Shown: positions 6,020-58,071 of the stretch, in pieces | Position numbering within the stretch: the first letter of the stretch is position 1 | How the letters are laid out: each line of letters begins with the position of its first letter | Assembly: GCF_037042905.1 (NCBI RefSeq) | Contig: NC_087245.1 | Coordinates: 33,358,001-33,422,000 of the forward strand | Direction: 5' to 3' | Length of the DNA: 64,000 nt | Source of the DNA: Lytechinus pictus | Taxonomy: Eukaryota | Notes under the pieces: model-generated | The model's database searches: none | Told to the model about the DNA's origin: nothing | Seen by the model: the letters and a program-made list of their open reading frames with translations, nothing else | Made by a program: the position numbers and the translations under genes

Positions 6020-6119
6020 GAGTCTTATTTAAAAAGTCTTTGGTGTGACTAAGCCAGGGATTGAACCCATGACCTTCCATTCACGAGGCAGGCACTCTAC
6101 CACTGAGCCACCATGCCGG
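6020..6119 (-). mobile_element. tRNA-derived SINE head
   Basis: Minus strand GGCATGGTGGCTCAGTGGTAGAG (A box) ... GGGTTCAATCCCTGG (B box), then non-tRNA sequence (AGTCACACCAAAGACTTT). Confidence 0.75.
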
Positions 6120-6744
6120 TCAAAATGTGAATAGGAGATCACGTTCACTGGAAATAGAAATATGGATTTTTGCTTTTCACAGGCATACGATTCATACCGG
6201 GGAACCATGAAGAAATACTTGATACAAAATACGTATTGAATTGAACTCACACTCACAGCCTCTTGTTGCTTGAGTTGGGAAATGTTAATATATGTTGAAA
6301 AGTATACAAGCACATTGAGACAGAAATGTCAAGTGTGAACAGATCCAATAATCTATATAATGTCCTTGAAGCAAGTGTAACTCCAGGTGCCGTTCTATCC
6401 TATCAATATAGAGCTGTAATATTTATTGGATTGTACATTCATTCATCTCCCAACCCGCCATGCCAGAAACTCGGTTTTCATTAAATTCATCTCAGGTCGA
6501 TAAATCCTTCAAGTTTACTTTTGGTTCACAGGGAATTAATCATGACAATATTTCATATAATCTTATCAAAAATAATTTTGTCCGACTAATATTTTATATA
6601 GTACTTTGCAATCCTTAAACACCATTCATGATATGAGAGTTTATTCCAAACATAGGATAGTAAAAGGCATCTACACATCATTATGCATCTATAGAACATA
6701 GATCTATCCTCAGAGCTGTCATCCAGCTTGAGTTTGATCTACCA

Positions 6745-12332: not shown

Positions 12333-13930
12333 CTAATTAGAACTAAGAACTAGCTGTGAAGAAATTGAGCATTTATGGAGAACGCCTCCTCGTTGACAAC
12401 AATGCTTGAAAATTTCTTAATCTTCATCATTGGCAAAGTAAACTTGAAATGGGTTGCTGAACAGAAAAATATACTTGGATCCATGTAGATTTGCGAGCTT
12501 AGTGCGAGATATATTTTCTATTAACCTCTTGGACTCTGATTTCTGGATTTCCTATAGGCTTTGTATATGGATCACCAGGTTCCAGCAGACAACGGGTTAA
12601 GCTCAATTTTACGACAATGCCTGAAGTAGATAAGCCTATATTTTAACATCCCTGCAAAGAGATCTGTTGGTGCTACACCCCATTCCAGGTTAAACAAAAA
12701 AAGAATTGTAACCCCCCCAAAAAAAAAAATTAGTGTTTAAATGAACCCCCAAATTTGCAGTAGGCACTATTGTATTTGCAAAATATTGAAAACCCACTGT
12801 CACAAACTATTCTCTTATTATTATTGTAATAGTATTTGCTACACATGCAAGGAAAACTAAATTTGTGAATTTGTAAAAGCTTGTAATCTCAAATCAATCC
12901 TGTGATAAGAGATAGATGAATTCCTGTTTGCCTTCTGGATGAGTGTCTGCAATTAAGTAATTAGTGCTACGGGTGTCTTCCTATGAAAACATATAATGGG
13001 TATTGCACTAGGGATGATGAAAAGCAGATTGAGGTAAAAGTAAGAGACGGATAAATCATCAATAGATGAATGAACAAAAACAGAAAGAGACAGATATATA
13101 TAAAGCATGGAAGAGAAAGGGAGAGTGAAAGATATTGGGGTGGATATGGAGAGAGAGATAGAGAGAAAAGGGGACAAAATGAGGAGTAATGTTCATTCAA
13201 AGCAGAAAGAAAGGTGCAAATAATTATGCAGCAAAAGTACACAGTAAATTTCAATTTGCATGCAAAAAAATCTTAATCCTCTTACATGAGGAATTTATAT
13301 AAGTTTAGCTTGAAATTTTATCCTTCTATGGTACTTTAATCTTTTTTAATGACAACATCAAACTGATGAGGTACCTGAAGTACATTTGCAATACTTTACA
13401 AATTTCCAGAACAAACAAGTGTCCTATCCTATTCTTCATCCCAGGCTTTACGTGTGTTTTACACTTCTTTGCTTAATTGGATTGAGGAGGAAAATATCAA
13501 ACACTGAAGCTATATTGTGGATATCTTAGTCTTCATAGAAATAAATAGCTAACTTGCAATATCATGGTTCAGGAAGAAGAGAATATTTCACAGAAAGTCT
13601 TGAGATAAGGTTACACGACTGGTGTTTAATTATACTGAAGAACTTCCCATAAATAGCTTGCCTGGTATGAGTAATGAGAATTCTAAATGGTAAAAAACTC
13701 ATTTAGGCTATCAATACTCTGGTTATTACTTTTGAAACGGGTGCAAAGGAAGGCTGGTAAACAATATTTTAATCAAAGATTATTGAAATAAATTCAATGT
13801 TGTGCTTCATAGATAGAGAATAAGTAAAAGACACATAAATAAATTGAAATTTGACTGACTGCAGGGGGGGTGTTAGAAAACAAAGGCAATATACCAAATC
13901 ACAAAAGGGGAAGGAGAGATTACAAGTGAG

Positions 13931-14100
13931 TGTGTGTGTATTTGAGTTTTGTCAGACGTGTATCATTCAGATATGATTTACGTCTGGGACGGACCTTTAA
14001 CGTCACCATCCAAAAGACGTGACCAGGGCTCGAACCTCTGCATCAATTTGTAACTTCCCCGCATGGCTTAGATTACAGGCGCACAGCCACAACGCCCAGT
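13931..14100 (-). mobile_element. SINE with 7SL(SRP)-RNA-like head, copy 1
   Basis: Minus strand CTGGGCGTTGTGGCTGTGCGCCTGTAATCTAAGCCATGCGGGGAAG...GGTTCGAGCCC...(CA)n tail; 11-bp TSD TTACAAGTGAG at 13920-13930 and 14101-14111. Confidence 0.85.
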
Positions 14101-16439
14101 TTACAAGTGAGGGGGGAGTGGAAGGGGTGTGGTGGGAGGATGTGGAGAGAAAATTGGTAGAGGGCAAGGAGAGAAGACAGGGAAGAGTGAAGGGGAGTGA
14201 CACCTTAAAAGTTAGTCATACTACGTACTGTATATCAAAATACAGGACAGTTTCACAGCAAGAGAATTTTTAAAATACTTTGATCAGAATATCAGAATGT
14301 AAAACGGAATAACATGCTGATGGTTGAAAAATTGATGTTTATTAATATAGGAAACCAAATTAATTGATAGGATTGTGCAGCAAATGCTAATGACACAAAC
14401 TAAAAAAAAAAAGAAAGAAAGCTAGGACATACAAGGGACTCTAAACTGTAAACTGATCAGGGACTGAAACTACCGAGTTAAACTTTAGCTAGTTTAATGA
14501 GGTATCGAAGCCAAGATACAGCTCATCACCAGGAAACTCATCTCCTTTTCCTCCCACTTGTCTCGTTATTTGAGAAAAGAAAGATTGATGCCTCGTCCAT
14601 TATCAGACCTCTTGCAGGGAAAACCAAACAGACTTGCAGTCCCTGGTTCAACAAATGTAAAGCATTTGTTTTCTGCTGACAGTAAGAAATAAATAGGAAA
14701 ATTCTGCCTACACATATGCATCTGATGTATTTCTTAATACAAGAAATATACTTTAACAGAAAAATGGGATTTGGTAATATAAAAAAATTAGAAGGGGGGG
14801 ATGGGCAGACTTAACTATATTGGAATACACATGTTTTTCTGGTTAAGACTGATACATGCATAGCAATTCTAAGGTATCAAAACTGCTCGCCAAAATGGGA
14901 TAATTATAATAGAATGTCATCTGAGGAAAGCATTTTTTTCTATTAAATAAAAGTGGTTTTGCATGTGTTCAGTGATATACTTGAGTGCCCCCCCCCCCCA
15001 TTGCCCCAGCTCCAGATAAAGCACTATGATGCATTATGAATAATATGTTCATTAACTTTCATACACAATAAAGCTACTATATGAAATGGCTAAATAGCTG
15101 AAAATGTACTTTAATTAGAATGGCCTGGAATAAGGCGAAATACTAGTAGGCCTCAGCATATAATGTTAAAGTAAAAGCAAGAGGTTCTAACCTATACGAG
15201 GAAAAGTGATGGATTACCAAAGCAAACAGTTGCCATGGTAATAAGTGAGGACACTCTCCAGTGTATCAATCTAAATGCAGACAATGTGGGCGGGAAGTGG
15301 TGCATGAACATTCTACTCTGATTCCCATTTTACCAGTCTGTGATCTTTCACCGACCCCCATCACCAACCGAGGGCGAAAGATGGGGAACATGGGAATCGC
15401 AGCAACCAAACAACAACATTCCCAGGCAGATCCGTTGATTCAAAGTACCAGTATGCACACAAAAAAATTGAATATCCCACGTGTAACAACAAAAACACTA
15501 CATACCCTCCTCCACTGGGAATGACCTTTGACCCATTCTCTCGGAGCGGAACATTAAGTTTGAAACAAAGTCTTGAGGAAACTATGAAGCCAGTGGTGCA
15601 ATTGTAGAATTAATGGATGACGGCAAAGCATGAGGAACGTTCTAAGGAATCAAAGCTACCAAACGAATAGGATTAACCTCGGATGCTGCAAACCAAGGCG
15701 GATGGATGAGGGAGCCCGAGGCAGCTGTGATGGCTTGCGAATGATATTTCAAGCTCACAGCTAGAGAGTTTGGAGTTCTTTTTCTCCCTTTTTTGGCAGT
15801 CTGTTTGTGGAACAGTGACCCTGGGTGTTGGATGACAATGGGAGTTGGAGAGCCCTTTGGGTTCTATTGGGTAATGTTTGGGTTCTAGATGAGACCAGGC
15901 TTCTTCCATGGTGCAATTGGAGGAGGTTCACCAAGTTCATTGGCAGGATTCCAAAATTACTTTTATCCTCTAAATGATAGAATTACTTTATTACACATTA
16001 TCCCTGGAATAAATTTCTCTGAAAATCATAAATGATTCTATGCTAACTGCCAATTATCTTATATATTCATGTACACTAAAAAATACACTTGTTTTACAAA
16101 GCAAAATCATCAAAACCCCTTCAGGCGATGCTTGACAATTCCATCACTTCAATTCTAAAATAATTATAAAAAAAGGGACTAAACTCCACGAGGACTATCT
16201 TTTAATTTGAAAAGCAGCCTTGAATAAATATGTGACATTGATCAATTATGGAATGGTCAAGTAAAACCCAGTAAGACGCATTAAGAGAAAGTGATGGTAA
16301 TCATTACAACAATGGAGTGAATAAAGATATGAAATAATCATAAATTACCTCTTCCCTAAGTTCTTCTACTTTCATCTACATGTATTTCAAAAATGTAACC
16401 TATTAGAATCATTCCAACTGCTGTATTATAGCAAATTCT

Positions 16440-18435
16440 AGGCAGTACTCTAATGGAAGAGGAAGTTAAAGATATTTTATGTACTTTAGATGCTTCAAAA
16501 TCTCATGGGTATGATAATTTGCCAGTTAGATTGATCAAGGATGCAGCACCTTTCATTGCTTCTCTGTTGACTTATATGTTCAATTTATCATTAGAATTGG
16601 GCAAATTCCCAGATGCCCTAAAGGTAGCAAAAGTGACCCCCCTGTATAAAAAGGGTTCGAAGGATGACCCAGGCAATTATAGACCCATTTCAGTTTTACC
16701 AGTTATTGCAAAAATCTTTGAAAAATTAGATAATATGCGTCTCATGGCCTTTCTAGACTCCAGTGATATTTTGTATAGACATCAGTATGGCTTTCGTAAG
16801 AGATATAGTACGAAATTATCAGTAATAAATTTGGTAAACACATTATTGAAGGCGATTGATAAAGGTGAAATAACCATAGGTATATTTATAGATTTCAAAA
16901 AGGCGTTTGACACAATCAATCATAACATACTCTACGAAAAATTAAAGCATTATGGAATAAGAGGTATTGTATTGCAGTGGTTCCAGAATTACTTAATGGA
17001 CCGATCGCAGGTTTTATGTTACAAAGATGAAATGTCCAGTAGTAGAAGGATAACATGTGGTGTTCCCCAAGGATCAGTCCTGGGGCCAACACTCTTTTTA
17101 TTATATATTTAATGACTTACCAAGATCAACTGATTTTTTCCAGTTTAGACTTTTTGCAGATGATTCAAATATTTTCCATACTTTCCCCAAATGTCAAAAA
17201 GATATTGATATGAACTATGTAAGTAAGAAATTAAAAGAGGTGTATAGTTGGTGTATACTTAATAAATTAACCACAAATTTGAAGAAAACTAATTATATGA
17301 TAATAAAAGGACCAAGACGATCTATTGAAATTGAAGGTGTATTAACTTTATGTGAAACAGTTATAGAAAAAGTACATGTGGCATCTTTTGTAGGAATTCA
17401 AATCGATGAATCTTTGTTGTGGAAAAACCAGATCCAATGTATTGATAAATGCATTAGGCGGAAAATTGGTTTGCTTTTTAAATTACGTTACTATGTACCA
17501 CGGCATGTTCTAATGCTTTTGTATAAATGTTTTATACAACCACACATATCTTTTGGAATTGAAGTTTGGGGAAGTAGCTACAGGAGCCACCTAAATCGTA
17601 TATATTTGGCGCAGAAAATGGCTATGAGAGCAATTACATTTTCTCCACTTAGAACAAGCTCTACGCCACTATTCGTCAGTCTGGGGGTATTAGGTGTTTA
17701 TGACTTGCATAAACTTGCAGTATCAACATTTGTTTATGATTTACACAAGGAACATTTACCACATTCTGTAAAGCAATACTTTGAGATGTTAAATCATAGT
17801 TACAAAACCAGAGGCAGAGAACATTCCATGCTAAGACTTCCCAAATGTAACACTACACATGGCACTTTTTCTATATCTTTTATTGGAGCAAAGTTTTGGA
17901 ATAGTTTGCCCCAGAGTATACGAGAGAAAAGAACACGGTTTTCATTTCGTAAAAATCTGAAAAATTACTTGATTAATGAAGTTTGATGATTGATATGAGT
18001 TTGGAAAAAAAATAAAATAAAACAAAGTTGTTTTAGAAGTAGATACATTGAACTTTGATCCTTTTGGGAAACCATTCTCGACTAGCACTTGTGCTAACTT
18101 TTGGTTCTCCCTTTAACAGCATTTCATTTGGTACAAAATCACCCATACCATTTATAATTTATGTTCATGCATACAATCAATTTTTATGGTGATTTGCTTC
18201 TTGCCAGGTGAAACTGCATCAAGACAAAACACATGATGTTACTCTTTTGTATTATATGCTGATATCACATGCGGTATTATATTGTGTTTTTATCTAGACT
18301 ATGATTATGTTATGTTATGAATTGCATTTATATGATTCATGTTATATAACACATTCTTGTAAATATGTATTACACATATATTCATTCATGTAAATATGTT
18401 AATGTTGTTAATAAATTCAACTCAACTCAACTCAA
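16440..18435 (+). mobile_element. 5'-truncated non-LTR retrotransposon (CR1/L2/Crack group)
   Basis: RT ORF, 3' UTR with stem-loop (~18066-18111), AATAAA then (CTCAA)n tail at ~18410-18435. Confidence 0.9.
16453..17986 (+). pseudogene. LINE ORF2 reverse transcriptase, truncated, one +1 frameshift at ~17110
   Basis: Motifs NYRPISVLP, QYGFR, FIDFKKAFDTI, GVPQGSVLGP, LYI/NDL (split by an extra T), FADD. Confidence 0.92.
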
Positions 18436-23264: not shown

Positions 23265-24159
23265 AACAAGTGGAATGCCTCTGGCCGTCTCACCTGCATC
23301 ACGCGATTCAATATAGCAGCAGTGCTGATTTTGAAAACTACTATAACTCGCACAAGATGTTCAGTGATACTTGGTTACTCTTATTTCCACGTTTTATGAA
23401 CTAGACCAATACACTTATAGAGATATGATGGCAATTCAACAAATACCCCCAACGTGGCCAAAGTTCTTTGACCTTACATGACCTTTGAACTTGATCATGT
23501 GACCTGAAACTCGCACAGGATGTTCAGTGATACTTGATTACTATTATGTCCAAGTTTTATGAACTAGACCAACACACTTTCAAATTTATGGCTGTAATTC
23601 AACAAATACCCCAATTTGGCCAAAGTTCATTGACCCTAAATGACCTTTGACCTTGATCATGTGACCTGAAACTTGCACAGGATGTTCAGTAATACTTGAT
23701 TACTATTATGTCCAAGTTTCATGAATCAGATCCATAAACTTTCAAAGTTATGATGGTAATTCAACAGATACCCCCAATTCGGCCAAAGTTCATTGACCCT
23801 AAATGACCTTTGACCTTGGTCATGTGATGTGAAACTCATGCAGGATGTTCAGTGATACTTGATTAACCTTATGTATAAGTTTCATGAACTAGGTCCATAT
23901 ATTTTCTAAGTTATGATGACATTTCAAAAACTTAACCTTAGGTTAAGATTTTGATGTTGATTCCCCCAACATGGTCTAAGTTCATTGACCCTAAATGACC
24001 TTTGACCTTGGTCATGTGACATGAAACTCAGGCAGGATGTTCAGTAATACTTGATTAACCTTATGGCCAAGTTTCATGAACTAGGTCCATATACTTTCTA
24101 AGTTATGCTGTCATTTCAAAAACTTAACCTCAGGTTAAGATTTGATGTTGACGCCGCCG

Positions 24160-33462: not shown

Positions 33463-33959
33463 TATGCTTTTCACACTGCACTTTTTGTCCTAAATTGGTG
33501 GGGCTAAGGGGGGGGGGTCTTAGCCCCACCAATATCCCGGGGTTAAGCTTAGCCCACTTCGTTTTCACACTACGTTTTAGCAAAGTGGGCTAGCACGGGA
33601 AATAGTGCGGTACTATCTGGCCCTGCAAAAAAGCAGGGTTAGCCGGCATATTGCGGTGCTAGCACCACACTTGCGGTGCTAAGAGATGCAGTGTGAATCG
33701 AAACCGGGCTAAGGAAAAGTGGGGCTAAGCATTAGCCAATCACAGAAGTCGAAATTGCACGTTAATCGCGCTCTGTATGGTAAAATCATCAATATTTATG
33801 AGCTGTGTGATTGCCTGGGGTTAAGGCGTTAACCCCGGCTAAGCAAATAGTATGGGGTTAAGAAAGACAGTGTGAATCGAAAAAAGGATAGTATGGGGTT
33901 AAGGATAGTCCGGGGTTAAGGATAGTATGGGGTTAAGGAAATGCAGTGTGAAAAGCATA
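33463..33959. mobile_element. Harbinger-type MITE rich in GGGGTTAAG motifs, copy 1
   Basis: TIR TATGCTTTTCACACTGCA / TGCAGTGTGAAAAGCATA; highly similar copy at 40549-41050. Confidence 0.88.
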
Positions 33960-34937
33960 TTACAATGCCTCATCTCTCTCTCCCACTCTCCTTATATCCT
34001 CACTCTCACTGATCCTTCAAACCTTCTCCCAGTCACACTCTCCTCTTTTCTCATACAGCTCCATTTGATTGTGAAGAAACAGCTTTTCCCCCAAAAGAAC
34101 ACAAAAGGAACATTATTCACATTATCTCCATGTACATACAAGATCTCAGTTTCTTATATATCACATAATCCTCTCCTTGATATAGAAATATACTGAGCCA
34201 TCATCAGCAGTTCCAAAAGAACCAATTTCAGGTGAATTCTTACAAGTTTGAAAGAAACATTTCATTCCATATAACTCTCTAATTGTTACAATCAGAGAAC
34301 ATAATCTGCAGCAGTAGGAAAAGAGCACATATGATTTATTTTAAGCCCTACATATGTTACTACTCCTGTGGGAGTAAAGCAAGGTTTCCACTTTGGCGAG
34401 TTAACATCGCGAGTTATGGCGAGTTATAGCGAGTTGCCAAAATGAGGCACTCGCGATAACTCGCATAAAGCTCACCATGAAACTCGGGATAACTCGCGAC
34501 AACTCGGCAGAGCTCGGCGGAGCTCGTTCAAGCTCGGGACAACTCTCCTTGAAGTCGTGAGCTGTTTCAAAATTTTTGAACATGTTCAAAAATTTTGCTA
34601 ACTCGCTGTAACTCGTGCTGAACTCACCTAAACTCGTTATATACTCGCAGCACTCGCAATAACTCGTAAGAAGCTCGAGATAAACTCACAATAACTCGTA
34701 ATAACTCGCCACATCTGAGTATACGCGAGTGCGTTCCGAGTTTTCAAGAGCGATATACGAGCATTGCGATCGTTTTACGAGTCAAATGGAGGTGCCCACG
34801 AGATTAGCGCGACTTTAGATCGAGCACCCCGAGTTACAGCGAGTTTCGTATGAGTTTATTCCGAGTGCGTTGCAATAGCTCAGAGGCATGCCAGCTGAAT
34901 GATAAATGTCCAGTGATCTATATTTTCCCCACATATA

Positions 34938-36319: not shown

Positions 36320-37430
36320 CAAGTGGAGCGCCTCTGCATCACGCTTTCCAATATAGAAGTAGTGCTGACTCTGAAAACTATTGTAAAATAATTATTCACA
36401 AAAACACCATTCATACATTGATACAATACTACGTTCATTTACAATAAATGACATTTGACCTTTATCATTTGACCTAAGACTTGTCAGTGATACTAGATTA
36501 CCCCTATATCCACATTTTATAAACTGTATCTAAACTTTGAAAGTTATGACAGTAATATAGTATCAATCTCCAAATGGCCAAAGTTCAATAACCTTAAATG
36601 ACCTTTGACTTTGGTCATGTGACCTGAAACTGGCATGAAATGTTCGGTGATACTTGACTACTCTAATATCCAAGTTGATGAATCATATCCATAAGCTTTC
36701 AAAGTTATGATGGTAATTCAACAAATACCCCCAACATGGCCAAAGTTTATTGACCATAAATGACCTTTGACCTTCGTCATGTGACCTGAAACTCGCACAG
36801 GATGTTCAGGAATACTTGATTACTCTTATATCTAAGATTCATGAATCAGATCTATAAACTTTTAAAGTTATGATGGTAATTCAACAGATCACCCGAACAT
36901 CACTAAAGTTCATTGACCTTTGACCTTGGACATGTGACCTGATATCCGCACAGGATGTTTAGTGATACCTGATTACTCTTATGTTCAAGTTTCATGAATC
37001 AGATTCATAAACTTTCAAAGTTATAATGTTAATTTAACAAATACCCCAATTGGCCAAAGTCCATTGACCCTAATTGACCTTAGTCATGTGACTTGAAACT
37101 CAAGCAGGATGTTTATATACTTTAATAACCTTATGTCCACGTTTCATGAACTAGGTTCATATATTTTCTAAGTTATGATGACATTTCAAAAACTTAACCG
37201 TAGGTTAAGACTTTGATGTTGATTCCCTAAACATGGTCTACGTTCATTGACCATAAATGACCTCTGACCTTGGTCTTGTGACCTGAAACTCGAAAAGAAT
37301 ATTTTGTAATGCTTGATAAACCTTATGGTCAAGTTTCATGAACTAGGTCCAAATACTTTCTCAGTTATGATGCCATTTCAAAAACTTAACCTTCGGTTAA
37401 GATTTGGTGTTGACGCCCCCTCCGCCGGCA
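36320..37430 (+). mobile_element. HINE-like element, diverged and 3'-truncated copy of 23265-24252
   Basis: Same CAAGTGGA..GCCTCTG start and same TGACCTTTGACCT tandem units. Confidence 0.8.
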
Positions 37431-40548: not shown

Positions 40549-41050
40549 TATGCTTTTCACACTGCACTTTTTTCCCTTAATCCCAGGAAATTGGTGGGGC
40601 TAAGGGGGGTCTTTGCCCCACCAATTTCCCGGGGTTAAGCTTAGCCCACTTCGTTTTCACACTACGTTTTAGCAAAGTGGGCTAGCACGGTAAATAGTAC
40701 GGTACTATCTGGCCCTGCAAAAAAGCAGGGTTAGCCGGCTTATTGTGGTGCTAGAACCACAATTGCGGTGCTAAGAGATGCAGTGTGAAACGAAACAGGG
40801 CTAAGGAAAGTGGGGCTAAGCATTAGCCAATCACAGAAGTCGAAATTGCACGTTAATCGCGCTCTGTATGGTAAAATCATCAATATTTATGAGCTGTGTG
40901 ATTGACCGGGGTTAAGGCGTTAACCCCGGCTAAGCAAATAGTACGGGGTTAAGAAAGACAGTGTGCATCCAAAAAAAGATAGTATGGGGTCAAGGATAGT
41001 CCGGCATTAGGGATAGTATGGGGTTAAGGAAATGCAGTGTGAAAAGCATA
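40549..41050. mobile_element. Harbinger-type MITE rich in GGGGTTAAG motifs, copy 2
   Basis: Same TIRs and body as 33463-33959; TCA/TAA flanks. Confidence 0.88.
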
Positions 41051-41129
41051 TAAGTCATGTGGGCACGAGTTCGAGTCCAAGGGTGAACATGATTTTTGTT
41101 TTCTTTTTTGTTTTACTATCTCGCACATG

Positions 41130-47712: not shown

Positions 47713-47760
47713 TAGGCCTTTATTCACGAAGGAGCTCTTCTTACCAGAGACAGAACTGTG

Positions 47761-47929
47761 TGTGTATTTGAGTTTTGTCAGACGTGTATCAATCAGATAT
47801 GATTATTTACGTCTGGGACCGACCTTTAACGTTACCATCCGAAAGACGTGACCTCTGCATCGAACCTCTGCATCAATTTGTAACTTCCCCCGCATAGCTT
47901 GGATTACAGGCACACGCCACAACGCCCAG
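47761..47929 (-). mobile_element. SINE with 7SL(SRP)-RNA-like head, copy 2
   Basis: Minus strand CTGGGCGTTGTGGCGTGTGCCTGTAATCCAAGCTATGCGGGGGAAG...; TSD AGACAGAACTGTG at 47748-47760 and 47930-47942. Confidence 0.85.
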
Positions 47930-48247
47930 AGACAGAACTGTGAATATAATTCGATCACTTCTTATAATCCACTGAAAACGTCCATGGACCAATCGCTTTT
48001 GAGCCCACTCTCCCCCTTCCGTTTGCCAGCACATGGAAATGATACGATGAAATACACTTCTCAGTAAAACTTACATTTTAGTTCGATTTATTCCAATATG
48101 CCTGTCTTTTTTTCAATTTGATACCAGTACTGAAAATTTTAGTTCATAAGAAGAATAATTAAAAAAAGAGAGGGTAAAGTAAAGAAAGAATAAGAGTATT
48201 GCAATAAAATTGCATGTTCGTCGAACTCTGAACACTGAAAAAACCGG

Positions 48248-51146: not shown

Positions 51147-51367
51147 CACTGCAAAAGCTCTGGTGTTAATTTAACACCAGCCCGGAATCTATATATGTCC
51201 ACACCAGTTTCGTTTTGGTCTAACACCAGAAAGGTGTTCATACAACACCAATTAGTATTAAAACAGCATCGGTTTGATTCCAAACTGGTGTTGTTTCAAT
51301 ACTTCTCTGGTGTATACATATATAGATTCCGGGCTGGTGTTAAATCAACACCGGAGTATTTGTAGTG
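51147..51367. mobile_element. TA-flanked CACT MITE, same family as 7640-7891
   Basis: Same TIRs; small internal deletion. Confidence 0.85.
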
Positions 51368-51407
51368 TACTTGGCTTGTAATGCAGTAACTCGTGTTACA
51401 TCAACAG

Positions 51408-51605
51408 GTGAATCGGGAAACAACTTGAGATTAAGGAAGAAGCGTTGGGTCATTCTCTTCGGTTTGTTCTTTGTGTCTTTTTTGGAAAATGGCATCATCA
51501 GATCCATTGCCCTCATCCTGGACGATCTCACTAAGGAGTTTGACATCACTGCCGCCCACCTTGGCACTCTTCTTGGACTTGTATTCGGTGCACCTCACTA
51601 TCTGG
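51408..51605 (+). CDS. SLC16/monocarboxylate-transporter-like MFS protein, first recognisable coding exon (TM1-2)
   Basis: RWVILFGLFFVSFLENGIIRSIALILDDLTKEF; CAG acceptor; G|GTAAGT phase-1 donor; start codon not identified. Confidence 0.8.
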
Positions 51606-52079
51606 GTAAGTCAATTTAAAAATACATTAGCAAAGTATTTTTTCAAATAATGAAAGTAGCAAGTTTTAGCCACACCTAATCAATTTTCCGGTCCCGCTGA
51701 AACGTAGGCCCCATGTAGGACCCTTTAAAAATGGGTGGCCGTGCTGGTCAAACTATCACCATCAGGGTTGGCGCATACGCCTATATAGGTTACACACTTT
51801 ATAAGAAATAGGGTTCCAAATTTAACCCTGTGGATTGGTAAAATAACAGCTCTCTTCAATGGTTGGTTATGCGCATATATTTATTCCTAATTAATTACAA
51901 AACAAAACAAAAATTTCAAGGTCATGTACTTTAAATATATACAAAGGCGAAACCAAGGTTAAGTAGCACGAAGCAAAGCGAAGTGATCGAACGAATGATT
52001 ACACATGATAGCATGCAATCACTGTACAAACATTGCCCTACTATCAATTCCTAGTATGTTCATATTTGATTCCTAGTAT

Positions 52080-54060: not shown

Positions 54061-54881
54061 GAAGAGCTCACTTGCAAAAGGGGTTAGGTCCATTTTTCAT
54101 CAAATTTGATTTTTTGGTCTCAATTTATAGATTTTTAGTAGCTCTATAAGATGATACCAAAGAAAATTTGAAATTCCTAATTAAAAGTAATCAAAAATGG
54201 CAAAGAAAAATCACTTTTTTCAAAAGGGGTTAGGTCCATTTCAGTTTAGTTACAAAAGGGATTAGGTCCACACCGAATTTTTTGGAAAAGAATATTTTAA
54301 AAAATATGAAGAAAGGTAGATTTCTTTTTATACCCAATTTTATGTTGTCATGGTAGGGAATCTTGAAAATTTAGTTTCGCATAAGAATATGCAATATAGC
54401 AGAATAAAAAAAAAATGATTTTCTTGGAGTGGACCTAAGCCCTTTTGCAAACAAACTCTTCTGAATAGCTCATTTGTCAAAAGGGGTTAGGTCCATTGTC
54501 CATAAATTTTATTGTTTTCTGTCTCAAAACCTCAAAATTTTTAGTCGCTTTGATGAAAACAAAGAAAATTTGAAATTTACATGAAAACGTGAAAAGAAGT
54601 GGAAAAGAAAAATCACGTTTTTTAACCAAAATAGATTGGATTCATTTAAGTTTACTTGCAAAAGGGCTTAGGTCCACAATGATAATTTTTAAAAGAATCT
54701 ATAGAAAAAAATTGAAGACAGGTAGATTTCTTTTATACCCAATGTTATGTTCACATGAGAGGGTAGTACGTCATGACAATTAAGTTTCTCATAAGAATAT
54801 TGCAGTAAGTGAGAATAAAAAACTTAGTTTTTCTTAGAATGGTCCAAAGTGGACCTAAGCCCTTTTGCAACTAAACTCTTC
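54061..54881. mobile_element. Head-to-tail dimer of a ~400-bp MITE with 4-bp TSD (Sola1-like)
   Basis: Units 54061-54461 and 54463-54881; TIR GAAGAG..TTGCAAAAGGG.TTAGGTCCA; AAAT on both outer flanks. Confidence 0.75.
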
Positions 54882-54946
54882 AAATATACATTTTCAAATA
54901 ATAAATAGTAATGTGACAGTAAATGAGATTGCCTTTTTTCAATCAG

Positions 54947-55087
54947 GATGGTTGAACATCCCTCTCCTACGAAGATTCTCGGTCCGGCAGCTCGTTATGT
55001 TTGGAGGGACGGTGTCAACCCTTGGACTCGTAACATCTTCGTGGGCTCAAACAGCCATCCAGTTTTCAGCTGCAATGTCAGCATATG
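54947..55087 (+). CDS. SLC16/MCT-like exon (TM3-4)
   Basis: GWLNIPLLRRFSVRQLVMFGG (MFS motif A-like); CAG|...G|GTAAG, phase 1-1. Confidence 0.88.
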
Positions 55088-55211
55088 GTAAGATTATGAA
55101 GTTCATACATTCGCAAAAAGCGTTTTTCTTGTAGGCCTACGTCGATATTGATCATCTGACGCGTAGTATTAGTAGTAATTGATTTAAATTCTGAAAAATA
55201 TAGAGAAAACC

Positions 55212-56471: not shown

Positions 56472-56536
56472 TAAGAAACGTTAGTTCTTACCTTCTTACC
56501 TAGTTTTATTTTTCTTGTTCTCAATTTCTTGAACAG

Positions 56537-57505
56537 GGATCGGCAACATATTGATTTTGGTTCCAACAAACACTTGCCCAAAGGATTACTTCCCTAAGCT
56601 GGTAATGATCGCAACCGGTATTCTGTTATCCGGAGGAAGCATGGGTGTTACGGTGATGCCATGGTTCTTTAGAGAACTGCTTGTCGAATATGGTTGGAGG
56701 GGCTCTCTTTTGATACTTGGTGGATTAAACGCACACCTTGTTGTGGTAGCATCCTTGCAGGAACCAATGAAAAGGATGGATTCTTCCCAGGACTCGGACA
56801 AGAAAAGCCCATCCTCATCACGTGCTGGTGAAAATGAAAACGAATTATCAAGTTCGGATGATTTATCAAGATCCCATAAATATTTACATACAGTTACAAA
56901 TACTGCGGCATCTGAACCTTCTAAAGGTCAGCTAAGCTTTAATGATGATGATGGTGGACAAACGGATGGCCAGACTGTCAAGACTCGGAGCATTATTTCC
57001 AAAGGGTTCAAAACTACGACAAGATTCATTGGTTTAACAATCTTCAAAGATCACCCTCTCATGGCCTTGCTTTGCCTGCAAGCTTTCGTTTTTGGCCTCT
57101 CTTACATCGGTTGGCTGCTATACATTGTGCCCAATGCCCTCGCTAAAGGCCATTCTAGTCAGAAAGCAGTCCAAATATCGATCGTAGGAGGCGCTTTTAA
57201 CTTCATAGGTCGTTTGGGGATCGGCTTCTTCTGGTCCCGAAAATACATTAAGTTTAAACTCTGGTACTCTCTGATATGCCTCCTGTCGGCGGCTCTCTTC
57301 TGGATCAACTTTGTCGCGCAACGTTTCGAGATTCTGATGGTCTTATCTGCGTTCTATGGTGTATTAATGGGTGCCCTCGTGACATCTCAATTTCAGTTAG
57401 TGATGAATGTCGTTGGTGAAGATTCCCCTGATGATTATAAGACTGGAATGTCAATATTCTTCATAGGACGTGGCCTAAGTAGTCCGATTGCAGGAGCAAT
57501 ATTTG
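56537..57505 (+). CDS. SLC16/MCT-like large exon (TM4-11 and cytoplasmic loop)
   Basis: DYFPK..IATGILLSGGSMG, YGWRGSLLILGG, FIGRLGIG; CAG acceptor at 56536; G|GTAAGT donor. Confidence 0.93.
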
Positions 57506-58071
57506 GTAAGTTTCTTAATCCGAGGAGGCGGGACGTCATGCCTTCACAATTGAAGTGGAAGAGTAGATATCGTCCACAGTCGACAGAGGTGTCGGTAGAG
57601 ATGACGGTTTGGATGGGTAAACCATCGTATGCTATTAATGCATGGCAAAACGTTTTGACACCACTGTTGCTTTATGAAACAACGGGTGCATAGATCCGTC
57701 TTTGTATTTCATTGCCTAGTCCGATATTCACTGTCTCTGTCATTTTATTTCCCCTCTTTCATTCATAATCACAGACTCGACCTTTGCAGTATTGCATCGT
57801 CTGTTGTAATTGGCGAAGCCATACAACTTTCCCAATGATTGAATATAGTTTCAAAATTATGTTGATGGAACTTCGGTCGTTAAAATAAAGTGATACCTCT
57901 TTGAAGTACGCCTTGTTAATGTTGTCAAAGCGTATTGATAAGATTAGAAAGACCATTGTGAAAAAAAGCAAAGTTGTTGAAAATCCAGTATTATCTAAAG
58001 ACATAAAATCGGTAAGCAGCTATTATATGAATATTTGTATAATTGGAATCTTGTGTTCTTATTTCTTACAG

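Follow-up and report, generated by a model that had tools for sequence, protein, structure and literature searches.

The window, by which we mean the whole stretch of 64,000 nucleotides of Lytechinus pictus that was analysed, contains part of a transporter-like gene, several repeats and fragments of retroelements, and two copies of a short element of about 170 nt that is the subject of this report (Table 1). The probable exons belong to a gene resembling MFS monocarboxylate transporters, and the two Atlas clusters nearest to the transporter exon are composed mostly of Echinodermata, a lead, short of proof, to the echinoderm host that an earlier, sequence-only reading had supposed. Both copies of the short element lie on the minus strand at the places that this reading had given them, each ends at its 3' side in (CA)n, and each is flanked by a target-site duplication (TSD) of its own, of 11 nt for the copy at 14 kb and of 13 nt for the copy at 47 kb, as that reading had also noted.

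Table 1. Positions of features in the window, followed by genomic loci (L numbers) mentioned in the text.
Feature	Position	Strand	Remark
7SL-derived head, 47-kb copy	47883..47929	-	whole 5' Alu domain (helix 3, the U-turn UGUAA, helix 4 and the closing strand), with the A box inside
Linker and B box	47853..47882 (B box 47857-47865)	-	tRNA-type T arm in long-form copies
Deu (Nin) start, first ~37 nt	47816..47852	-	hairpin; compared by eye with the sequences drawn in Fig. S4 of PMC7245038
Nested 3' hairpin	47779..47815	-	occurs also in an I-group LINE family, at its 3' end; presumed RT recognition signal
LINE-like terminal spacer and (CA)n tail	47761..47778	-	
TSD of 47-kb copy, 3' side	47748..47760	.	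exact match reaches 47744-47760
TSD of 47-kb copy, 5' side	47930..47942	.	exact match runs 4 nt into the element, 47926-47942
Second copy (14 kb)	13931..14100	-	head 14053-14100 with A1; B box 14027-14035; hairpin 13953-13986
TSD of second copy, 3' side	13920..13930	.	
TSD of second copy, 5' side	14101..14111	.	
T4 run inside 14-kb copy	14012-14015		
Transporter-like gene, exon(s)	56533-57693	+	MFS monocarboxylate-transporter-like
Probable further exons	51344-51619; 54859-55134		
Reverse-transcriptase fragments	16432-17986	+	CR1/L2-like look; two frames
Possible tRNA-headed SINE	~6029-6140	-	ORF translation reads like a tRNA head running into a Meta-like domain (from the ORF listing alone)
Dispersed tandem-type repeats, ~160 nt	23295-24154; 36568-37416		
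Repeat pair, ~450 nt	33512-33960; 40604-41051		95-96% identity
Head-to-tail SINE copies and dimers	L010:981-1993; L039, L041-L044; L017; L026		six mixed-subfamily copies within one 8-nt direct repeat (by eye); several dimers
Tandem array, 1.7 kb	L145-L155		~13 units, each with a 5'-truncated SINE tail and a 6-nt TSD
Diverged SINE copy near 7SL genes	L031:1291-1459; L035:1295-1463; L036:1316-1463		three 7SL genes in a cluster, each with the copy ~40 nt upstream
Downstream B boxes of 7SL genes	L031-L036, ~1820-1850 (gene orientation)		perfect, tRNA-type; 21-45 nt past the 7SL 3' end in 6 of 7 genes (not L037)
LINE family with Deu domain	L248, L255		RNase-H-bearing
tRNA-Lys genes	L098-L117, L122-L125		large tandem cluster
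tRNA-Arg(ACG) gene clusters	L323, L324		on two contigs
Recurrent target sites	L005, L006, L013, L017, L047; L003, L024, L066; L023, L278, L288; L062, L283		
fam13 end within another repeat	L311-L317, L319		short end, fixed and amplified afterwards

The element consists of four modules: nt 1-46/47 of 7SL RNA, a tRNA-type T arm with its B box, about 37 nt that match the start of a Deu domain, and a LINE-type 3' hairpin. The cores of the two window copies (164 and 159 nt) share 148 identities, and the copies agree with the 162-nt common form of the family at 157 and 153 positions; by this comparison, both are older variants of the family. The head of the 47-kb copy is without nucleotide A1, and a short duplication stands in place of the 3' strand of its T arm. 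The target is also matched by the initial 4 nt of this copy, which lengthens its TSD from 13 nt to an exact 17 nt, and such microhomology with the target at the 5' end would explain the missing A1. The 14-kb copy carries an internal T4 run, which would probably cause an early stop of Pol III transcription.

Family size, age and insertion junctions

A search of 812 Mb in 368 contigs returned 1,409 candidates, and the matches of the 40 that were scored lie on at least 18 contigs; the element is therefore neither human Alu contamination nor a product of chance. A 25-mer from the head, with up to two mismatches allowed, occurs at 1,346 places (7SL genes included) and an exact 25-mer from the tail at 875, and the reversed patterns of both, used as controls, occur at none. 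A degenerate pattern of the 3' hairpin occurs at 1,654 places, with about 100 exact matches, nearly all of them of the LINE type. From these counts of head, tail and hairpin patterns, we estimate the size of the family at about 1,300-1,500 copies. Among 60 aligned copies, which were the top-scoring ones and hence a biased set (six duplicate loci were left out), 27 are identical over the body, and the family is therefore young. In a look at sequencing runs, three organisms accounted for 0.21 of the sampled words and others for less, among them two runs labelled sea urchin or echinoderm metagenome at 0.07; these figures were not taken as evidence of taxon or species range.

Insertion junctions were examined in a sample enriched for variants and truncations, which was reduced from 121 copies to 97 solitary ones and then to the 93 with unique flanks. 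TSDs of at least 7 nt are present in 24 of the 93 (mismatched-flank control: mean 2.3, maximum 6), and TSDs of at least 10 nt in ten (control mean 0.2). The other 69 copies are without a TSD of 7 nt or longer, such that clean TSDs are untypical of the family. The TSDs start with CA or AC in 21 of the 24 cases, a preference that is partly built into the search; and 32 of the 93 copies start after position 3, a proportion that applies to this truncation-enriched sample and is not a genome rate. Several of the 5' truncations cluster at the Deu hairpin. TSDs in part of the copies, the (CA)n tail and 5' truncation are hallmarks of TPRT, as befits the retroposon that the element had been taken for. 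SINEBase defines a SINE as short, interspersed and present in at least 100 copies, and the family, at about 170 nt, is interspersed and exceeds that number.

Several loci depart from solitary insertion. Head-to-tail copies and dimers (Table 1) suggest serial template jumping. A tandem array includes a truncated SINE tail in each of its units, and an Rfam search with one unit (L147) yielded no match. The diverged copies upstream of three clustered 7SL genes have the same flanks and so represent one insertion that was duplicated along with the 7SL gene.

Head, body and tail of the element

An Rfam scan of the window returned no family at its gathering score, and in a focused scan the element matched Metazoa_SRP over approximately its first 50 nt. 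This match (E=5.3e-05, 25.6 bits) is the one that a 7SL derivation calls for, but it falls far under the gathering score of 70. The head was also compared with the host, whose genome contains seven full-length 7SL genes (272-283 bits). Against host 7SL, the head scores 61, and the best of 1,000 shuffles scores 34, which upholds the original proposal that the head comes from 7SL; in the comparison that included host tRNAs, it scores 65 against 7SL and only 12-14 against tRNA-Arg and tRNA-Lys. The head is not equidistant from the seven genes. It shares 41 of 46 positions with the gene L037 and 39 with each of the six others (the head of the 47-kb copy has 40 identities over 47 nt to L037 and 38 to L033), and the closing pair between positions 3 and 43/44 is U3 with A in both the head and L037, and C3 with G in the other six. 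Similarity to 7SL stops at nt 46-47, which is the end of the closing helix of the 5' domain: when the body of the element was compared with the rest of host 7SL, its score was reached by 6-29 of 200 shuffles, and the 3' end of 7SL was unmatched. Judged from these alignments, the head is the host's own 7SL RNA from nt 1 to nt 46/47, with L037 as the closest gene. Describing the element as Alu-like is appropriate only where the 5' half of that domain is meant, because its 3' strand is absent.

Other sources for the head were considered and rejected. A tRNA head is not indicated, ARAGORN having found no tRNA in the window and the scores against host tRNA-Lys and tRNA-Arg(ACG) being as low as stated; nor is a 5S head, 5S being absent from the Rfam matches of the element at E values as high as 10. 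A match to mir-1268 (E=0.65) was disregarded.

The structural features of the 5' Alu domain were counted in 72 of 75 full copies, three having been excluded for indels. Helix 3 is able to pair in 71 of the 72 and helix 4 in 70, while UGUAA is retained in 70 copies and A1 in 58; helices 3 and 4, the U-turn and the closing helix can each form in 70-72 copies, with the counts for helix 4 and for the closing pair eased by a G-rich strand and by the way in which the end of the head was located. Because the copies are recent, these counts may reflect common descent and are weak evidence of selection. The loop of helix 4 has 9-11 nt in the SINE as against 8-9 nt in the host and is the part that varies most among subfamilies. 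The closing helix falls outside the minimum-energy fold of the head, and the same holds for the host 7SL genes. One SRP14 exon was detected in the genome (E=2.5e-4).

The original view of the body, that it was unrelated to Alu, stands, and its parts can now be named: a B box of tRNA type, a fragment that resembles Deu and a hairpin like that of a LINE. The B-box consensus is present in both window copies. In long-form copies, 17 of 19 nt agree with the T arm of host tRNA-Arg(ACG) (score 30), and 0-4 of 300 shuffles do as well (three copies, two genes), a result that is biased because this tRNA was found with a SINE-derived pattern. The match to tRNA-Lys is weaker (9-110 of 300 shuffles); Lys and Arg(ACG) were the two tRNAs compared, and the search for tRNA families gave tRNA-Lys alone. 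Compared with nt 41-110 of 7SL, the middle segment is at chance level (150-292 of 300 shuffles as good). The putative Deu start agrees with AmnSINE1 in about 28 of 37 columns, aligned by eye to the sequence given in Fig. S4 of PMC7245038, and the rest of the domain is absent; against a host Deu copy it scores 35, the maximum of 500 shuffles being 27. A parent SINE with a tRNA head was looked for in loci totalling 442 kb and, by means of a Deu query, in 1.06 Mb, and neither search yielded one.

Related motifs occur elsewhere in the genome. The genes for tRNA-Lys and tRNA-Arg(ACG) are clustered (Table 1). In one RNase-H-bearing LINE family, the 3' UTR holds a B-box-like motif and a Deu domain in both copies examined. 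The B boxes located downstream of most host 7SL genes suggest an extragenic promoter element; the yeast U6 gene has such an element downstream.

The last ~55 nt of the SINE form a nested hairpin (z -3.15). Its closest counterpart among the LINE ends examined is the 3' end of one family, fam13 (L283, L284, L288, L292), which was reached by protein search from an RNase-H LINE: 44 of 55 columns are identical (score 58, shuffle maximum 31, n=500), the fam13 end folds into the same hairpin (z -4.08), and between the two hairpins two stem pairs have changed on both sides and one has become G-U. The resemblance, at about 80%, is not complete, and the SINE ends in (CA)n where the LINE ends in (CAA)n. 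Several of the RNase-H-bearing LINEs at the 70 loci examined (in 14 clusters; 150 of 257 candidates were scored) end in similar hairpins. The sister family fam11, which is 52-59% identical to fam13 over the RNase H region and has APE, RT and RNase H domains in its ORF2 (Pfam), shows the geometry of the SINE hairpin at lower identity, its tail score of 28 being under the fam13 shuffle maximum of 31. We take both families to be I-group (Nimb) LINEs, a label that derives from domain architecture rather than from an RT tree. An intact copy of fam11 (L306, minus strand) has stop-free frames of 364 and 1,239 aa, with a full SINE directly behind it; a convincing TSD shared by this composite was not found (best 8 nt, offset), and no copy among the fam13 loci found was intact.

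Insertion sites provide a line of evidence that is independent of the tail match. Scored inside repeated DNA, the 3' junction is shared exactly with a SINE copy by three of six fam13 ends and by one of nine fam11 ends, as compared to none of 43 ends in seven other RNase-H LINE families and one of 300 random 45-mers. In several interspersed repeats, a single nucleotide position has repeatedly received copies of the SINE and of I-group LINEs that differ in their 5' junctions (Table 1), and these sites are target hot spots.

A variant of the tail that is nearer to the SINE was set aside as a candidate: in eight of the nine loci examined, out of 12, it is a short fam13 end inside another repeat, and the ninth is a longer fam13 copy. 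At the loci listed in Table 1, that end was fixed within the repeat and amplified afterwards, and the variant probably owes the majority of its ~60 matches to this amplification.

Proposed origin and rival explanations

The explanation that we favor, with a probability of roughly 80%, is that the SINE is a chimeric, non-autonomous retroposon. Its birth would have involved a tRNA-headed, Deu-type SINE with an I-group tail, in which the 5' part was swapped for nt 1-46/47 of an L037-type 7SL RNA; the simplest route would be a switch of template by the reverse transcriptase, of the kind also proposed for the heads of 5S-tRNA SINEs (PMC4824008). Pol III would, very probably, start at A1, with the A box of the 7SL head and the B box of tRNA origin as its promoter. 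The head may then fold as the 5' Alu domain, bind SRP9/14 and carry the RNA to ribosomes, as has been proposed for Alu, a step to which we assign even odds. Finally, an I-group LINE of the same genome would provide the ORF2 protein that recognizes the nested 3' hairpin, and TPRT would be primed on CA microhomology. On the evidence of tails and targets, the partner belongs in all likelihood to the I group, and it is probably, if less surely, fam13 or its sister fam11.

The main rival to this scheme accepts the same origin and disputes what the head does: the 7SL piece would have supplied only a start site and an A box, binding of SRP9/14 would be lost or irrelevant, and mobilization would depend on the 3' hairpin alone. 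We rate this a serious possibility, somewhat short of even. A hairpin that is specific to its LINE means that the element, unlike Alu, need not compete for an RT that binds poly(A), and the helix-4 loop has been free to vary among successful subfamilies, to the point of a 2-nt deletion. However, the captured piece extends beyond the A box and ends where the 5' Alu domain closes, and the same domain, as Kojima argues (PMC7245038), has been kept in the RTE-driven hagfish element Ebu1-1. The source of the B box can also be disputed, in that it could have come from the 7SL locus itself, either from internal nt ~60-80 as in Alu or from a downstream element, with no tRNA SINE promoter involved. With gaps, the alignment to 7SL can be carried on as far as nt ~100, six of the seven host 7SL genes have a B box 21-45 nt past their 3' ends, and the B-box element downstream of L031 scores 26 against the middle segment (3 of 300 shuffles). 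Against this, the middle segment matches 7SL nt 41-110 no better than chance, its T-stem arms fit tRNA-Arg better, L037, the paralog nearest to the head, is without a downstream B box, and Deu domains are usually preceded by tRNA heads in the account of PMC7245038; we view a B box from the 7SL locus as improbable.

Slightly less improbable, although still unlikely, is a partner other than fam13 or fam11, either an unsampled sister family of the I group or a member of another clade. The tail identity of 80% and the different terminal repeat unit would accommodate such a partner, as would the extent of sampling, which covered the RNase-H candidates given above and 50 loci from 150 listed RT matches; the L1/Tx1-type and CR1/L2-type 3' ends at those 50 loci gave no match to the tail. 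But of 74 tail matches with non-SINE sequence upstream, none of the 21 examined lay behind a long ORF, and another 40 tail matches without the exact head were all SINE copies or truncations, so that no LINE with the exact tail of the SINE was among them; and target-site sharing was limited to fam13 and fam11. As for human Alu contamination, or a chance GC-rich likeness in an ordinary tRNA SINE, the one point in its favor is an Rfam score far under the gathering cut-off, and its probability is close to nil: the head tracks a host paralog, beats 1,000 shuffles and is embedded in host sequence at over 1,300 sites. The comparison with host 7SL refutes it, in agreement with the sequence-only reading, which had also dismissed contamination.

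Comparison with known systems

The published papers that we searched, a body of literature distinct from Repbase, Dfam and SINEBase, contained no invertebrate 7SL-derived SINE. The lineages to which such SINEs had been assigned at the outset, Euarchontoglires and hagfish, need to be extended by a third vertebrate one, Urop of the shrew mole: a February 2026 paper (PMC13023118), in its account of these elements, has them from supraprimates, hagfish and shrew mole only, all with both strands of the Alu domain. An invertebrate family with the 5' domain only would be a fourth independent origin of 7SL SINEs, and one of a different design. In sea urchins, SINE2-1 to SINE2-6_SP are classed as tRNA, Meta, CORE or Deu types, and since they are known here by type and not by sequence, the present family could already be catalogued as a SINE2, which we consider doubtful.

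Judged by its head, the family is a SINE1 in the Repbase sense of a 7SL-derived head; relative to the SINEBase threshold for SINE1 (at least 60% identity over at least 60 nt), its identity is sufficient and its 46-47 nt are too short. Like Alu, B1 and Tu of Euarchontoglires and like Urop, the element begins with the 5' Alu domain of 7SL RNA (PMC13023118). The ~183-nt central deletion, both 7SL ends, poly(A) and L1 that characterize those elements in the same paper are absent here. The 3' strand of the Alu domain, present in Alu, B1, Urop and Ebu1-1, was not found in the body of the SINE; the B box, which in those four derives from 7SL nt ~76-86, does not do so here; and in place of the poly(A) tail and L1 partner of Alu and B1 there is a (CA)n tail. 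Because the 3' strand, a 7SL-derived B box and poly(A) are all absent, the family lies outside the design that those elements share.

A close parallel is SINE1-1_EBu (Ebu1-1) of hagfish as described in PMC7245038, another young family in which a 7SL head was independently placed on an older SINE chassis, with a non-L1 partner engaged through a LINE-derived tail, a microsatellite 3' end and a similar copy number (2,363). The two differ in that Ebu1-1 has 7SL nt 1-96 and the 3' strand, i.e., the whole Alu domain, with its own B box, an RTE partner and TSDs of ~17 bp, whereas the present SINE combines nt 1-46/47 with a B box of tRNA type, a fragment of Deu and a tail of I-group type, and long TSDs are mostly absent from it. 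In DeuSINEs, including those with 5S-tRNA heads and the sea-urchin SINE2-3_SP (compared by its description), the Deu domain starts after a tRNA-type B box, as does the putative Deu fragment here, and the 5S-tRNA heads offer a precedent for replacement of the 5' half of a tRNA head by another Pol III RNA through a template switch (PMC4824008, PMC4758252). There, as those papers describe, it was 5S that was added and the Deu domain spans 70-330 nt; here it is 7SL and ~37 nt. For the tail, the parallel is with the Meta and V SINEs of bivalves, driven by Nimb (I-group) LINEs, in which tails of 35-61 nt are 72-95% identical to the LINE (PMC11481361), as compared to 55 nt and 80% here, although the heads reported for them are ordinary tRNA heads and not 7SL.

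The remaining comparison is with constructs rather than natural elements. Moldovan 2025 (PMC12199147) reports that the 46-nt 5' Alu domain (7SL nt 1-46) binds SRP9/14 and supports ~86% of Alu retrotransposition, and predicts that such a truncation would fail in evolution because it has no B box and hence no internal promoter. In the minimal domains SA46/AY46 of that study, the RNA begins with the 46-47-nt segment that also heads our SINE, but these constructs are artificial and rely on a CMV promoter, poly(A) and L1 ORF2p. The present family bears on the prediction that a truncation without a B box cannot succeed, in that here the B box was supplied from elsewhere. We raise, tentatively and as somewhat short of an even proposition, the idea that no 7SL-headed SINE has come to light outside vertebrates before this one and that it is a minimal Alu made by nature, in which selection would have kept exactly the 46-47-nt domain that binds SRP9/14, a borrowed tRNA B box would have rescued the promoter, and SRP9/14 would give access to ribosomes and so to the machinery of an I-group LINE, which the SINE would hijack. 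If this is true, ribosome targeting through SRP would be a general strategy of SINEs, independent of L1 and of poly(A). With a young family, a candidate LINE that has an intact ORF2, and the tractable embryos of echinoderms, a role for SRP beyond L1 and poly(A) is directly testable. Such a design separates two jobs of the Alu domain, those of promoter and of SRP9/14 binding, that are entangled in Alu.
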